Assembly (NCBI GenBank): GCA_963782915.1
Contig: CAWALK010000003.1
Location: 1-42,536 of the forward strand
Direction: 5' to 3'
From: an uncultured archaeon
GTDB taxonomy: Archaea > Thermoproteota > Bathyarchaeia > Bathyarchaeales > Bathycorpusculaceae
DNA length: 42,536 nucleotides
A program made the translations under genes and the position numbers. The notes under the pieces are model-generated. The model ran no database searches, was not told the DNA's origin, and was given only the letters and a program-made list of their open reading frames with translations. Shown here piece after piece: positions 2,120 to 35,774 of the stretch. Position 1 is the first letter of the stretch. Every line of letters starts with the position of its first letter.

Positions 2120-2761
2120 TTAGAAATGAATTGATTGTTTTGGTAACTGTGCTGACACCACGCCTTTCTTTATCGCCGCCAAAACCGAATCTACATTCAT
2201 TGCTGCCTCAACCTGTGTGCAAACACTAAACAACTCGGAGACTTGGTGTGCATCGCTGCCTGCGGTTCCGGGTAAACCTAGTTCTTTGGCGAATTCTTTG
2301 GCTTTTGCGTTGCCATCTTTACTGGTACCCCCGTTTAAGACCTCTATGGCGTCAACTTTTAGGCTTCGAGCCCGTTCTCCCATGCCATAGGTGCGGAATG
2401 GGTGGGCAACGATGGCTACGCCGCCGATTGAGCGGGCAAAATCCGCTACTGCTTCAGGCGTCCAAGGTTTAGGCGGCAACTCAAAAGTTCCCAAAACCAG
2501 CATGTCCCCGGTTGGCGTGCCGTCTTCTATGGTGCTGATTTCGCAGCCCGGGATAATTAGGATGTCTGGATAGGCTTTGGCGAGTTCGATTGTGGGTTTG
2601 TTGGCTCTTACACTGTCGTGGTCGGTGACTGCTGCGACTTTAATGTAGGGGTGGGCGTTTAGCATGTCAACGAGTGTTTTAGGTTGGACAAGGGAGTCTG
2701 CCGAGTAGACGGTGTGTAAGTGGAGGTCTGCGTATAGGGTGCCTGGTTTTGGCGGAGTCAT
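2120..2761 (-). CDS. PHP-domain metal-dependent phosphoesterase
   Basis: Motifs DLHLHT..S.D, AVTDHD, PGCEIST, AHPFR, IEVLNG, GSDAH; likely start ATG 2761 (MTPPKPG). Confidence 0.9.
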   Translation of the reverse strand: MTPPKPGTLYADLHLHTVYSADSLVQPKTLVDMLNAHPYIKVAAVTDHDSVRANKPTIELAKAYPDILIIPGCEISTIEDGTPTGDMLVLGTFELPPKPWTPEAVADFARSIGGVAIVAHPFRTYGMGERARSLKVDAIEVLNGGTSKDGNAKAKEFAKELGLPGTAGSDAHQVSELFSVCTQVEAAMNVDSVLAAIKKGVVSAQLPKQSIHF

Positions 2762-2889
2762 AATTGGGCTTATAGGTGATTGGGGGTAAAAAAGATATTT
2801 GAAGCTACAACCATCTAGAAGATAAAAAGGACACAAAGAAAAATGGAGAGAGAAATACTTGTTTCATCTTCCATTTTGCCTAATGCTTT

Positions 2890-3130
2890 AGCGCAGGTCA
2901 AGTCTGAGCCTTATTGTCGAGCTCGGCCCACCTAAGCATTGTCTTGGACGCCGCAGACTCTTTTCGCCGATTCGAATCTGCTGCTTTCAAGGCTTGGGTG
3001 CTTCAACACTCAGCAATGTCTCAGCCCAATGAGGCAGAGTCCTTTGTCGCGCCCCAATTTTTCGCTGTATGAATCAGGGTGCATCTGAGCCTCAGTGCAT
3101 TGCTTCTAAAGCTTGCTCCTTGACCTGCAA
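2890..3130 (-). ncRNA. Candidate structured non-coding RNA (~240 nt), family unassigned
   Basis: No long ORF. Perfect 10-bp terminal helix (2893-2902 with 3119-3128) and several internal hairpins whose G-U wobbles favour the minus strand. BRE/TATA-like cgcaat-atttatca at ~3166-3153 and a pyrimidine-rich tract downstream at ~2856-2830. Confidence 0.6.
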
Positions 3131-3240
3131 TAATCCTATGCGTTTTGGCAAGTGATAAATATTGCGACAAATCTGTTACAGAAAATACTATTGATGCATC
3201 AAATAGGACAATATGGTTAGGTTAAACAAGAAGAAGCTGC

Positions 3241-4876
3241 TTAATTTTCAGCTAACCCCTTACGCAACGCAGCCTCCAAATGGCTCAGCAGTTCCTTGGT
3301 TCCCTCAACATTCGCATCTTGAGAAACAAAAACCAGCGATTTATCCTCACAGGCTTGCTTGGCTGCTTCTTTGACCGTGTCATTCCAGAGTTTTCTGTCA
3401 TTCAGCAAAACCACAGCTTGGTAGCTGCCGCGTTTGATGAATTCTGCGGTTTGGGCTGCAACGTAGTTGACTGTTTCCAAGTCAAGGGGCAATGTGACTT
3501 CATGCTGGGAAAGCGGGTAAACCTCGTCAAGTTCCAAGGGTATGACGCCGAATGGAGCCGCATAAACACACACATGCACTTTCGCGGCTTAGTCTTCGCC
3601 TATCATTCGCAGGAGTTGGCGGATTTTCTTCATTTCGGGCGCTTTATGGAACGGTTTATTGCGCGTTTGAGGCACCAAAAACAACACCTTTGCCTCTGCT
3701 GGCGGCGTGTAGCGTTCGCTTAGGCGTTTGCGGTAATGGACGATTTCTGGGCGTACTAATCCGACTGAGTCAAAGTAGAAGAAGCCGCTGGATTTGGCGG
3801 TTGGGCTAAACTTTTCGAGGAAATCTTCGCTGCTGCGCAAACGTTTGAGCGCTGAAAGCAAGGCTGGATGTGCATGTAACCGCATTTCTGTGTGTTCCCA
3901 GAGCCTGCCGTCGCGAATCGCCTGTTTGATGCGGCGTATTTCAGCCATGCAAACGTGCAGGTTGTGTTCCGCTAGGAAGACTTCGCGTTCTTTAGCCGGT
4001 TTCCTCCGCAAGCCTTCGGGGGTTTCGGATGAGCATTTGGGGCAGCTGCATGGGAAATAATCCATTTGGTCTATGCGCCATGTGCCGTTTTCGGTCATGT
4101 AGCGGCCTTCGCGGGCGTAGAGTGCATAGGCTGCTGAATCGAATAAGTCGCAGACCAAGTGAAACAGCGAGTGCGAACATGGATGGGTGACCAGCGCCGA
4201 ATAGGTGCAGGGGGCGCTCCATTGGGATGCCCTTTTTGCAGGTTAAAATCATATCCGCCAGCACATCATAGCGGTAGTTTTCCATAACTTCTGTTGGGCT
4301 GCCCAATGCATGGATTGGGAAGGGTAATTTGCCCATTTCAACCGCGGATGATGCGACCAAGTCGAGGTGTCTGCCGCCCTGTACTGGACCGACCCAGAGG
4401 ATGTCATCTCGGGTTTTTAGTTCAAAGAAAGCTTTTGCTCTGCGCAGGGTTTCTGCTACGGTGACTTCGGCTTCTTCTTTGGTGACTTTCCAGCCCGTAG
4501 GAATGTCAAGGATGGTGGCTATGTCGCTACCGATGCCTTCCTGATAAGCAACAATCTCTTTCTGGCTGACCTCGACTTCGCCGTAAACAAGAATCTGATA
4601 AGCGCCTGAATCTGTCATGACTGCGCCGTCGTAATCGAGAAACTTGTGCAAGCCGCCCATTTCGATGGGTTTTTGGTCAAAACGTTTCTTGATGATATAT
4701 GAATTGGTGATTATGGCTTGGCATCCGAAGACTTCCTTGAGCCGCTTGGATGATATGGGTTGGTTGCTGGGGTTTATGACTGGGAATAGGAGCGGAGTCT
4801 CGACTGTGGCGCTGCGGGTTTTTAGTTTGCCGATTCTGCCAAGCAGGTCTTTTTCTTTAATTTCAAAGATGCTCAA
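3241..4876 (-). CDS. tgtA: Archaeosine tRNA-guanine(15) transglycosylase (frameshift ~4155, in-frame TAA at 3589-3591)
   Basis: MTDSGAYQ, LDIPTG, PVQGG, HLFGAGHP, CDLFDSAAY, CSCPKC zinc site, LAEHNL, YPLSQ; three ORF pieces join collinearly. Confidence 0.92.
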
Positions 4877-5273: not shown

Positions 5274-6026
5274 ATGGTCTGCTCAATCAACATAACCGAA
5301 AAACCTCAACTTAACGACCCAGTCCTCATCGAAGGCTTACCAGGCATAGGTTTTGTAGCAAACATCGCAGCACTCCACCTAATCAAAGAACTCAAAGCAA
5401 CATTGTTTGCACAGATTTTCTCTTCATCATTCCAAGACTTCGCCATAACAACCGAAGACGGCGGCGCACGCTCACCCATAAACGAGCTCTATTATGCTAA
5501 ACATCCAGAAGGCGGACGAGACCTCATCATCTGGTACGGCAACACACAAGCACTCACAACCATTGGGCAATATGAACTCGTCGGCAAAGTACTCGACATC
5601 TGCGCAGATTTAGGCTGCAAATTCGTAATTTCCATCGGCGGCTTCAAAAAAGACGAAGTACAACCCATCCCAGCCATCTACAGCACCGCCACAGACCTAG
5701 AAACCATGCAGGTAGCGCTGGATTTAGGCACCAAAGTCATGGTCGGACACGTATTTGGCATCGCAGGCTTATCAGTTGGTTTAGCCAGAATACGCGACTT
5801 CAAAGGCTTCTCCCTACTCGTCGACACCTTAGGCATGAACCCCGACGTCAACGCAGCGGAACACGCCATAATAATGCTTGGAAAATACCTCAAACTCAAC
5901 GTTGACTTAAGCGGCATCGAAGCAAGCGGCGAAGAAATCAAAAAAATGCTAGAATCCTTTGGAATAATTCGAAGCATAACAGAAGAAAAGAAGAAAGAAG
6001 AGCAGCAACTGCGCTGGTTCATCTAA
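5274..6026 (+). CDS. PAC2 family proteasome assembly chaperone-like protein
   Basis: PVLIEGLPGIGFVANIAALHLIKEL, VISIGG, GIAGL, PDVNAA pattern typical of archaeal PAC2. Confidence 0.88.
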   Translation: MVCSINITEKPQLNDPVLIEGLPGIGFVANIAALHLIKELKATLFAQIFSSSFQDFAITTEDGGARSPINELYYAKHPEGGRDLIIWYGNTQALTTIGQYELVGKVLDICADLGCKFVISIGGFKKDEVQPIPAIYSTATDLETMQVALDLGTKVMVGHVFGIAGLSVGLARIRDFKGFSLLVDTLGMNPDVNAAEHAIIMLGKYLKLNVDLSGIEASGEEIKKMLESFGIIRSITEEKKKEEQQLRWFI

Positions 6027-6448
6027 GCTGAAGCTTTTGCTTCACTCATAAAGGTCTCATAGACTTTTTGCACGCGATCAGCGGCTGGTCCTGAGCCTTC
6101 AACAACGCCTTTTTCGGTTAACTTAACCTTGTCCATTACCCAGATGAAGCCTTGGTCATCATAGAGTTTAACCATGGTTGGGAAAACTTTTTCGAGTCTT
6201 CCAGCGAGTGCTTTGAGGTCGAATGGTTTATCTGCACTGGATATTTGAGCGACGGTGCTTCCGTTGATTATTATGCGGTGTAGGGGTTTTCCTGCTTCGG
6301 TTGCGTCTGCTAAAACTAGGCTCATATTGTCTGGGTTGATGCCGATGAGTGTGCCGTTAATGGTTTTTCCGTTTGTGGTGACGACAGCTACAGTTTTATC
6401 TGCTAACGCTGCCACTTCTGTAAAGTATTTTCTTTGCGCTACAGACAA
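6023..6448 (-). CDS. Lsm/Sm RNA-binding protein with C-terminal extension (SmAP3 type)
   Basis: Sm fold (VAVVTTNGKTINGTLIG..NMSLVLADA...RIIING) plus C-terminal domain (FDLKALA.RLEKVFP.MVK...IWVMDKVKLTEKGV.EGSGP.A). Confidence 0.88.
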   Translation of the reverse strand: MSVAQRKYFTEVAALADKTVAVVTTNGKTINGTLIGINPDNMSLVLADATEAGKPLHRIIINGSTVAQISSADKPFDLKALAGRLEKVFPTMVKLYDDQGFIWVMDKVKLTEKGVVEGSGPAADRVQKVYETFMSEAKASA

Positions 6449-14451: not shown

Positions 14452-15006
14452 CTATGCCTTAAACCATTTGAACATTAGATACTTAATTTTCTTGGTATCT
14501 AAATCTGGCACGGCAATTATGAAACGTTTCCGCACGGTCGTTGCAAGCCGACCATTTTTTACAATCTCAGTTGCAGAAATATCTGATCCTGCCTTTTTGA
14601 CAGTGACCATGTAAGGCGCATGTTCCACGCCTGGACCATACTTGTAAACTGCGAAGTCACAGCCGAATTTTATTCCAGGCGTAACGATTAAGCCGCTGTC
14701 ACGCATATCATGGTAAACAGCATATTTTTCTTCGAATTCCTCGTAGAGTTGCTTGGCTTTGATTCGGAGTTTTTTGAGATTAACTTTTTCCTCGCCAGGG
14801 TTTTCGTAAATCTCGATTTTTTCGGTTTCGGCTAGGTAGAGCCCTTCCATTAAGTCTAAAACAAGCGGTACATCGAATTCTGGAATTTTAGGTTTGGGGA
14901 TGCCCACTGGTTTGCCGTAGTAGGCGGTTTTGTAGAGTTCGGAGCCCTCTGTGGGGTTCCAGACGACAAGAAAGTTTTCGATGAGTTCAACCCTGATTTG
15001 AGGCAT
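14452..15006 (-). CDS. endA: tRNA-intron endonuclease, catalytic subunit
   Basis: GIKFGCDFAVYKYGPGVEHAPY and RLATTVRK contain the Tyr-His-Lys triad. Confidence 0.92.
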   Translation of the reverse strand: MPQIRVELIENFLVVWNPTEGSELYKTAYYGKPVGIPKPKIPEFDVPLVLDLMEGLYLAETEKIEIYENPGEEKVNLKKLRIKAKQLYEEFEEKYAVYHDMRDSGLIVTPGIKFGCDFAVYKYGPGVEHAPYMVTVKKAGSDISATEIVKNGRLATTVRKRFIIAVPDLDTKKIKYLMFKWFKA

Positions 15007-35226: not shown

Positions 35227-35774
35227 ACTGGCATGTGCATTTCGCCCACTGAGTAGTGGACGATTTCGCCTCGCCTATTCATGACGGCGAGGATTAATTC
35301 TTTCTTTTGGCTTTGGCATTTTGAGAGTGCATCGGCTAAATCGTTAATGGGTAATGGTTTGCCTTCTTGAGTGACAAGGATCAGGTATGGTGCGGTGTCT
35401 TTGCCGTATGCTCCGCGGTCGTATATGCGAAAATCGATGCCTGCGCCGAAGCCCTCACGGACCACGTAACCGCGGCTTCTTAGATCGCGGTAGACGAGGT
35501 AGTTTACCCATGCGTTTTCGTTTAGGGTTTCATAGCAGTGCAGAAGACCCTGGAAATCTACGGTTACGCCCTCTTTGGTTTTGGCTTCCAGCATGCCTTT
35601 GTCTTGGAGGTAGAGTGCTTCGAAGAAGGCTAAAGTGAAAACTTTGTTTTCGAGTGTTCCGTATCCGCGGCTGGTGAGTTGGTCGATGCTGCTTTGTTCG
35701 GCGACGACTATGCCTTTTTCGGTTTGTATGCCGCTTGTTTTGAATTCAACAGGTGCCTTCTTGACTTCGCTCAT
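35223..35774 (-). CDS. tRNA-intron endonuclease, structural (non-catalytic) subunit
   Basis: L.FFEALYL, YLVYRDLRSRGYVVREG, DFRIY; lacks the GPG..H catalytic His loop present in 14452-15006. Confidence 0.85.
   Translation of the reverse strand: MSEVKKAPVEFKTSGIQTEKGIVVAEQSSIDQLTSRGYGTLENKVFTLAFFEALYLQDKGMLEAKTKEGVTVDFQGLLHCYETLNENAWVNYLVYRDLRSRGYVVREGFGAGIDFRIYDRGAYGKDTAPYLILVTQEGKPLPINDLADALSKCQSQKKELILAVMNRRGEIVHYSVGEMHMPV

Follow-up and report, generated by a model that had tools for sequence, protein, structure and literature searches.

Which molecule is made by a small gene whose two ends pair with one another, and in what form it works, is the question raised by a locus in the genome of an uncultured archaeon of the class Bathyarchaeia (order Bathyarchaeales, family Bathycorpusculaceae). 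The locus lies on contig CAWALK010000003.1 of GenBank assembly GCA_963782915.1 (here G000), within a stretch of 42,536 nucleotides (nt) that was analysed as a whole and is referred to below as the window. The gene occupies 3128..2893 on the minus strand, is 236 nt long and is bounded by GCAGGUCAAG (3128-3119) and CUUGACCUGC (2902-2893); RNA position n corresponds to window position 3129-n on that strand. An initial annotation, made from the letters of the window, had proposed a stand-alone, promoter-driven, structured non-coding RNA (ncRNA) without an Rfam family, a proposal which the blank Rfam scans reported here support. The locus is almost certainly a stand-alone, real, conserved and structured ncRNA gene. 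It is a new RNA family, absent from the curated RNA families, that puts an established maturation pathway to a new use, its transcript being very probably processed at a motif of the bulge-helix-bulge (BHB) type into a circle. Taken as a whole, the best explanation, which is considered probable, is that of a BHB-made circular RNA with a PD-(D/E)xK-like protein of ~215 amino acids (aa) as its candidate partner.

Relation to known RNA families

Scanning of the whole window with Rfam 15 gave no matches at gathering thresholds, and at E <= 10 only a chance match to a long non-coding RNA on the opposite strand, so that the absence of a known family holds at both the strict and the permissive setting. 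When short forms of the RNA and two long forms from other families (nine loci) were scanned in the same way, only a neighbouring tRNA was found, and no tRNA was found in the window itself. The models of RNase P RNA (RF00373), signal recognition particle (SRP) RNA (RF01857) and 5S rRNA (RF00001) have no match at the locus. The genome carries its archaeal RNase P RNA at C15:218743-219046 (184.5 bits), its archaeal SRP RNA at C23:11973-12288 (154.2 bits) and three 5S rRNA genes elsewhere in G000. As ordinary genes for these RNAs stand elsewhere in the genome, the present RNA is none of the three, and the exclusion of RNase P and SRP made in the initial annotation is borne out. A search of the full-text literature found no description of the RNA, with subscription journals and supplements lying outside its scope.

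Relatives of the RNA exist in two forms. A long form with two arms, of ~222-236 nt, occurs in the genus of the window and in several other families, and a short form with one arm, of ~133 nt, occurs in relatives with small genomes; comparison of the two indicates that the long form holds two copies of one module. Structures were written by hand and then counted on MAFFT alignments that had not been fitted to any structure. In the long form (66 sequences, 60 distinct), 88.6% of alignment cells are paired and 70 of 83 pairs show compensatory changes, with 0 of 500 shuffles doing as well. The short form (27 sequences, 25 distinct) reaches 93.9% of cells paired and 37 of 48 pairs compensatory; here again 0/500 shuffles were as good, and slid controls paired in 25-46% of cells. 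Both the conservation and the covariation in relatives that had been proposed as a check are therefore found.

The bulge-helix-bulge motif and its presumed enzymes

The strict hBHBh' motif recognised by the archaeal splicing endonuclease, in the excerpted text of PMC7714728, is a 4-bp helix between two 3-nt bulges. The ends of the RNA match this canonical form, with a 10-bp outer helix, the 4-bp helix GAGC/GCUC and the bulges AAG and AGA on opposite strands. The outer helix, P1, consists of a 5' strand at 3119..3128 (RNA 1-10) and a 3' strand at 2893..2902 (RNA 227-236), both of which would be removed on processing. It corresponds to the terminal minus-strand stem GCAGGUCAAG...CUUGACCUGC of the initial annotation, which is confirmed by compensatory changes in 10/10 pairs and 97% of cells paired among the 60 distinct sequences. 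The 5' half of the motif (3112..3118) joins GAGC (RNA 11-14) to the bulge AAG (15-17), with a predicted cut at A16|G17, and the 3' half (2903..2909) joins GCUC (220-223) to the bulge AGA (224-226), with a predicted cut at G225|A226.

The central helix, already recognised as an extension of the terminal stem, comprises G11-C223, A12-U222, G13-C221 and C14-G220 and is paired in 100% of cells across the 60 distinct sequences; its pair 11/223 is GC in 29, GU in 22 and AU in 9. The 5' bulge follows A-N-G in 58/60 distinct long forms and in all 25 short forms, and the 3' bulge is AGA in 57/60 and 24/25, respectively. The inner helix (C18-G219, U19-A218 and U20-A217) is nearly invariant and 95.6% paired, and competes with an alternative register of P2. 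The earlier argument that G-U pairs assign the RNA to the minus strand also stands, an invariant U-G pair (60/60) fixing the strand. Moreover, the BHB base is the only part retained in distant variants with quite different interiors.

The window encodes two genes of the tRNA_int_endo (EndA) family on its minus strand, at 14491-14736 (97.2 bits) and 35259-35510 (80.9 bits), and an RtcB gene is present in the genome (591.7 bits). The two EndA paralogues suggest an endonuclease of the heteromeric (alpha-beta) type. Its cutting rule could be read from a control in the same genome, the intron-containing tRNA gene at C18:190722-190849, with BHB AAGGA/UCCUU - CUCA/UGGG and bulges AGA and AAA. On reading this sequence by eye, a 7-nt anticodon loop is obtained only if both cuts follow the second nucleotide of the bulge, and the cuts A16|G17 and G225|A226, with a junction G225|G17, are predicted from this rule. 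As regards the control itself, ARAGORN calls this tRNA Ser(CGA); splicing at the BHB gives the loop CUCAAGA, the anticodon CAA and discriminator A, so that it is more likely a tRNA-Leu(CAA).

Transcript evidence for the proposed circularisation

Contigs covering window 2900-3112 were found in four metatranscriptome runs from at least three studies. A 182-nt contig with a depth of 62.7 (X7 record 15) joins position 3112 straight to 19 letters equivalent to 2904-2923 of a relative, and after this junction continues along 2924-3064. In two further contigs (X2 records 9 and 10), 28 letters of the 3' part of the RNA (...GGGCUUAG) stand immediately before position 17. The X7 and X2 contigs come from separate studies and represent different sequence variants, and both carry the junction G225|G17. 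In general the RNA contigs stop or join at window 3112, the partner in the junction being the homologue of 2904. They give no cover at 2500-2870 and 3129-3600, which is not counted as evidence.

In DNA, a short junction pattern gave eight matches in 120 genomes of the genus (one with the reversed control); the five inspected are none of them in the context of the RNA, and the remaining three lie on contigs without a match to the covariance model R1 described below. Among metagenome contigs, a 21-letter junction pattern had no match and an equally long linear pattern had 45. Since the RNA contigs show 225|17 at the predicted BHB cuts and this junction was not found in DNA, we infer a mature circular RNA of 209 nt, window 2904..3112 on the minus strand (RNA 17-225). 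The linear molecule of ~240 nt that had been anticipated is most likely a precursor, given the BHB motif in the terminal stem and the 225|17 junction.

Maturation would proceed by cleavage after the second nucleotide of each bulge by the (alpha-beta)-type tRNA-splicing endonuclease, followed by ligation of G225 to G17 by RtcB, which would yield the 209-nt circle. In the circle, P2 would be capped by a new UCAG loop.

Secondary and tertiary structure

The covariation pattern points strongly to a three-way junction in which two homologous arms fold back, each held in place by a pseudoknot between loop and bulge. P2 (RNA 16-22/216-222) is predicted as a short hairpin. Arm 1 (3012..3104, minus strand; RNA 25-117) contains helix X (25-29/113-117), in which 5/5 pairs are compensatory, P3a (32-44/90-102; 10/13), an A-rich hinge and P4a (47-57/70-80; 11/11). 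Its pseudoknot, PK1, pairs the loop side CAGC (3064..3067; RNA 62-65) with the bulge side GCUG (3022..3025; RNA 104-107), is paired in 98.8% of cells and has 3/4 pairs doubly changed. Arm 2 (2915..3008; RNA 121-214) repeats this order with helix Y (121-125/210-214), P3b (129-141/188-200; 10/13 compensatory), a hinge and P4b (145-155/169-179; 11/11), and is closed by PK2, between the loop side CGGC (2966..2969; RNA 160-163) and the bulge side GCCG (2924..2927; RNA 202-205), with 95.3% of cells paired and 4/4 pairs doubly changed. Helix Y is paired in 70%, a low value which we think reflects MAFFT misalignment outside the genus.

In each arm, an A-rich asymmetric loop (A opposite GAYAAAGA) separates P3 from P4, and a 13-nt apical loop presents C-R-G-C for pairing with a G-C-Y-G bulge at the base of the arm. 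P3 (13 bp) and P4 (11 bp) differ little in length, and on this basis each arm would fold back on itself.

Only part of the interior drawn in the initial annotation agrees with this fold. Its stem GCAGAUUC/GAGUCUGC belongs to the covarying helix P4b, and the remaining stems (UGCACUGA/UCAGAUGCA, GGGGC/GCCUC, CUGAG-A-CAUUG/CAAUG-CUUAG, GUGU/GCAC and CUUG/CAAG) are paired in 67.3% of cells against 67.8% in shuffles, 461 of 500 shuffles doing as well. For the proposed pseudoknot AGCCUU/AAGGCU, the partner of AAGGCU is instead AGCUUU at RNA 16-22. The CUGA sequences, put forward as box D or k-turn-like motifs, are not conserved as C/D boxes; alignments read by eye contain no RUGAUGA and conserve CUGA nowhere except in GGGCUGA. 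A k-turn at the conserved hinge, as needed for L7Ae, would require a register that shifts P3 by one pair relative to the covarying pairs 42/93 and 44/91. In addition, the Lsm gene (window 6023-6448) is not a conserved neighbour, having no tblastn matches in the other loci, and the idea of L7Ae or Sm binding is left unsupported.

Three structural candidates were considered and rejected. An RNAalifold consensus pairing GCAYUGAGGC with the distal GCUUAGGUG was replaced once the short forms revealed the module boundaries. A local linker hairpin, AACA/UGUU, was abandoned in favour of helices X and Y, which agree with other families. The GAGCA/UUAGAC loop had been read as a k-turn or sarcin-ricin motif, an idea that was dropped once the BHB register and the junction accounted for this loop.

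Gene boundaries and promoter

A promoter of the TFB recognition element (BRE)/TATA type, gtcgcaat-atttatca, lies at 3153..3168 on the minus strand, its TATA-like box (3160-3153) being centred ~28 nt before RNA position 1. The TATA-like box of the initial annotation is thus conserved in relatives: a GTCRCAAAAnnTTATA block stands at equal distance in 22 of 23 aligned genus copies, the rearranged copy of genome G013 being unaligned there, and TTTGTGCAAAAGnCTTATATA is present upstream in most of 30 loci from other families. From the promoter spacing and a T-run, a primary transcript of 2839..3128 is predicted, beginning at RNA position 1 (3128), ~28 nt past the conserved BRE/TATA, and ending at a run of five T (2843-2839). 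A 3' trailer hairpin, AUGGA...UCCAU (2843..2874, minus strand), runs into this T-run and is probably a terminator element. At the same site about half of the aligned genus copies, read by eye, have GUGGA...UCCAC-UUUU; the hairpin was not found in the 30 loci of other families. The pyrimidine tract that had been placed directly after the 3' end is accordingly displaced, the T-run (2839-2843) lying ~50 nt beyond the stem and behind this small hairpin.

Folding energy adds little. The comparison with shuffled sequences that had been suggested gave z-scores of -2.22 for the minus and -2.98 for the plus strand, which is weak evidence alone and does not discriminate the strands. The region had also been described as free of long open reading frames (ORFs); short ORFs of 49-52 aa do overlap it. 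Upstream of the BRE/TATA (window 3170-3215, minus strand), the genus copies have a further block in common, GGTGCA..n..TTTTGTnnCA, not seen in other families, which could serve to bind a regulator or represent an inverted repeat.

Copy number and distribution

Three copies are present in the genome of the window, namely the one described, one at C19:182130-182423 (96% identical) and one at C1:119285-119525 (80% identical). The C19 copy stands at a contig end (G000:C19:180630-182459, locus L036) together with a copy of the PHP-domain gene that follows the RNA in the window (91.6% amino-acid identity) and a 93-aa ORF, and is either a recent segmental duplication or a separately assembled strain variant. 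Neighbouring genes vary among copies, and the arrangement of tgtA, RNA and PHP gene was found in only one other genome. Groups of three to four loci from different species have their neighbours in common, from which the paralogous loci appear to be stable. An explanation as a DNA repeat or miniature inverted-repeat transposable element, to which the terminal inverted repeat and multiple copies could point, was ruled out by the G-U pairs, the compensatory changes and the syntenic paralogues.

Two covariance models were used, R1 built from 22 genus copies and R2 from the short form. Within the genus, R1 has a match in 95 of 120 genomes (64/73 of high quality), with 1-4 copies each. In the order it matches 73/151 genomes, including 19/19 in one genus and 20/20 in another. 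R2 has a match in 27/151 genomes of the class Bathyarchaeia, other orders included, and in 0/131 sampled genomes from other classes of the phylum. When named genomes were scanned with a pattern, at least 80 loci were returned; among the matches listed, R1 confirms 41, all with archaeal titles, mostly Bathyarchaeia or Bathyarchaeota, and 38 loci with bacterial titles and one titled 'uncultured archaeon' fail R1. The initial annotation had expected a narrow lineage and a position downstream of tgtA; the gene is multi-copy and occurs across the class Bathyarchaeia, and the tgtA-RNA-PHP context recurs at a single other locus.

Two loci have an unusual organisation. At G013:C12:34746-35061 (loci L025 and L245) a rearranged copy carries an extra module, with three R2 matches overlapping within ~320 nt, which points to arm duplication as a process still under way in the family. 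Locus L021 (G015:C18:56917-58009) contains a tandem of two complete RNA genes, spaced ~860 nt apart and each having a promoter block of its own.

A candidate protein partner

An ORF of ~215 aa is divergently adjacent to the RNA gene at 16 of 30 loci from families with small genomes and adjacent to it at 9/17 loci from other orders; the other neighbour, a DNA ligase, is not kept in the other orders. When the stretches upstream of the protein gene were taken from 20 further genomes, eight of these genomes proved to carry RNA variants in which the BHB base is kept and the interiors are different, and loci L250 and L251 likewise combine a variant interior with the BHB base. In the class sample, the protein accompanies the RNA in 25 of 27 RNA-positive genomes, and the two without it are 85% and 68% complete. 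In the genus, both genes co-occur in 92 genomes, with the RNA only in 3, the protein only in 13 and neither in 12.

A single-copy protein, it shows 49-74% identity across orders. Neither Pfam nor NCBIfam gave a match to it, and its 2972 database relatives include, among the 120 listed, only rows named 'hypothetical protein'. A protein atlas returned only unnamed Bathyarchaeota clusters, with a PDDEXK_14 cluster at 0.85 serving as a lead only. The predicted structure has a pLDDT (predicted local distance difference test) of 88.8. With residues ~50-203, VIA-align gave 3dnx (Z 9.7, root-mean-square deviation (rmsd) 2.9 A, 106 aligned), XisH 2okf (Z 9.2, 3.2 A, 113 aligned), AF1548 (1y88; Z 8.5, 3.4 A, 106 aligned) and NucS (Z 7.3, 2.6 A, 95 aligned). 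The best of these matches are all restriction-endonuclease-like, which makes the modelled protein a candidate PD-(D/E)xK nuclease-like protein. Residues D82, E95, E97 and K120 are invariant and may be catalytic.

That the RNA acts with this protein is put forward tentatively, from gene neighbourhood and co-occurrence. In such a partnership, an exonuclease-resistant, rigidly folded circle would be a scaffold, regulator or specificity subunit of the PD-(D/E)xK-like protein, which is the least certain step of the proposed mechanism. More speculative again is the idea that viroid-like, pseudoknot-locked circles form the RNA subunit of a new ribonucleoprotein (RNP) with a PD-(D/E)xK nuclease that could, for instance, be regulated or targeted by RNA.

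Alternative explanations

Several observations weigh against a circle acting with this protein. Those that concern the circle also favour its closest competitor, in which the functional molecule is a linear RNA of ~236 nt closed by P1 and the junction arises as a minor side product, through faulty assembly or from an unsampled permuted gene. The evidence comes from assembled contigs (k-mer assemblies) rather than reads, the bridging contigs derive from relatives and not from the exact locus, and RNA libraries can contain DNA. The automatic joint table of the contig mapping lists no joint, the join having been read from other tables. One contig (X5 record 11) reaches window 2900, 4 nt beyond the predicted cut, and linear or precursor forms therefore also exist. 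P1 covaries and is hence under selection, but a processing stem would equally be expected to be so. The linear explanation is nevertheless unlikely, as the junction occurs in two studies and two variants, exactly at the nucleotides given by the BHB rule, and was not found in the genus genomes or in the metagenome contigs that hold the linear form; the BHB base is, in addition, the sole part kept in all distant variants.

As for the distribution and the partner, many families of Bathyarchaeia have no R2 match, and from this patchiness the RNA is not a universal housekeeping RNA. The RNA and protein genes are unlinked in the genus of the window, where the protein gene of the same genome lies at G000:C20:87057-87683. 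The protein is present without a detectable RNA in 49/124 of the RNA-negative genomes of the class sample. In one family (f24) it is present in 27/27 genomes, with an R2 match in 0/5 tested; in the eight f24 genomes examined, the stretches upstream of the protein gene yielded no RNA, which is not proof of absence. Related genomes are non-independent, incomplete ones inflate the class with neither gene, and Foldseek against the PDB gave no match at E <= 0.001, its best E value being 1.2e-3.

Some of these features could belong to a selfish 'orphan intron', meaning a mobile element that is bounded by a BHB, has a promoter of its own and spreads within the genome, and whose PD-(D/E)xK neighbour would be a homing-type endonuclease. 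PD-(D/E)xK homing endonucleases exist, the RNA has 1-4 copies per genome in contexts that differ within the genus, and its distribution across the class is patchy. We regard such an element as improbable, given that the paralogous loci are syntenic between species, in groups of three to four with common neighbours, that small genomes have one copy in a conserved place, that the interior bears a strongly selected tertiary structure and that the protein is single-copy and conserved across orders; no target-site duplications or host-gene insertions were seen. The head-to-head pairing of an abundant structured RNA with a nuclease-fold protein would likewise suit an RNA antidote or regulator of a nuclease toxin, in a type III-like toxin-antitoxin or defence module, and the best Foldseek row, weak as it is, is a CdiA-CT toxin domain. 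There is little chance of this, since the protein is vertically conserved, single-copy and not mobile, the RNA lacks ToxI-like tandem repeats, and many genomes have the protein without a detectable RNA, which would be intolerable for a toxin. Finally, the RNA is on the same strand as a PHP-domain gene (2120-2836, minus strand), ~130 nt upstream of its likely start, and could be read as its cis-acting, riboswitch-like leader. This is scarcely credible, as the hairpin and run of five T separate the two, a PHP gene is downstream in just two other loci, one of them a near-duplicate in the same genome, and in other families the downstream gene is convergent.

Comparison with known systems

The circular RNA proposed here has its nearest counterparts in archaeal tRNA introns and circular pre-16S/23S rRNAs, which, as far as the consulted portions of the sources go, have the same BHB motif (a 4-bp helix, two opposite 3-nt bulges and flanking helices) with the junction at the bulges. 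The enzymes, EndA and RtcB, are the same as those presumed to act on the present RNA. Circular rRNA forms have been reported in Bathyarchaeia, according to the available extracts of PMC12918454 and PMC7714728. Unlike in these systems, the 'exons' amount to no more than a leader of 16 nt and a short trailer, both belonging to a dedicated gene driven by a promoter, and the excised part is the conserved structured product rather than an intron or rRNA intermediate.

The SRP RNA of Thermoproteus is likewise a stable ncRNA that reaches its functional form through BHB cleavage and ligation, as stated in the excerpts of PMC4731332. It belongs to a known family and has a permuted gene, whereas the present RNA has a colinear arrangement, falls outside the known families and occurs in a genome with a normal SRP RNA. 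Small circular archaeal ncRNAs also include the circular C/D box small RNAs and other ncRNAs of Sulfolobus, Pyrococcus and Nanoarchaeum (PMC3326292, PMC3491384), which in the accessible passages of those papers are not tied to a BHB motif. In contrast to the circular C/D box RNAs, the present RNA has no conserved C/D boxes, is 2-4 times larger and has pseudoknotted arms.

Two more distant likenesses are drawn from general knowledge. Y RNA and Ro (rsr-yrlA) resemble the present system in having an ncRNA gene beside the gene of its (here candidate) partner, and in having a basal stem that is conserved and a distal part that varies; the present RNA has no Rfam match, its candidate partner has a PD-(D/E)xK rather than a Ro/TROVE fold, and its basal stem would be removed. 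P4-P6-like domains have, like the arms, an A-rich asymmetric loop between helices of similar length (here 13 and 11 bp) and a covarying contact between tip and base. In the arms this contact is a 4-bp Watson-Crick pseudoknot and not a tetraloop-receptor, so that the likeness is architectural only.

Other features of the genome

The tgtA gene next to the RNA (TGT and DUF5591 domains; window 3241-4876, minus strand) is divided into three overlapping or adjacent frames, 3992-4876, 3589-4158 and 3241-3579. Its orthologue in genome G034 (locus L007) is a single open frame, and the split reflects either two frameshifts, making a pseudogene, or assembly errors. Elsewhere, at G000:C25:81043-81180 (L002:1501-1638), the archaeal RNase P model is matched at its ends by a sequence of 138 nt (33.7 bits, E 2.8e-7). 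This sequence includes ACAGAAGGCGGGUUAC, is without 154 model positions and lies 4.3 kb from a 5S rRNA gene. It comes on top of the complete RNase P RNA encoded on C15 and may be a mini or degenerate RNase P-like RNA.

Significance

Cutting and joining at a BHB have been described for tRNA introns, for the precursors of rRNA and for a single permuted SRP RNA. In the present case this route seems to be used by a dedicated gene, of which nothing but the excised circle is a conserved product. If this is true, archaea make stable functional ncRNAs by circularisation beyond rRNA. The RNA would add to the catalogues a structured family with an elaborate, covarying tertiary fold across an abundant class of uncultured archaea, and its one-arm and two-arm forms provide a naturally occurring case of an RNA architecture built by duplication of a module. 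It also points to a candidate RNP whose protein component would come from an uncharacterised nuclease-fold family with 2972 members in the database; were that interpretation correct, an archaeal RNP dependent on a genome-encoded circular RNA would be known for the first time.

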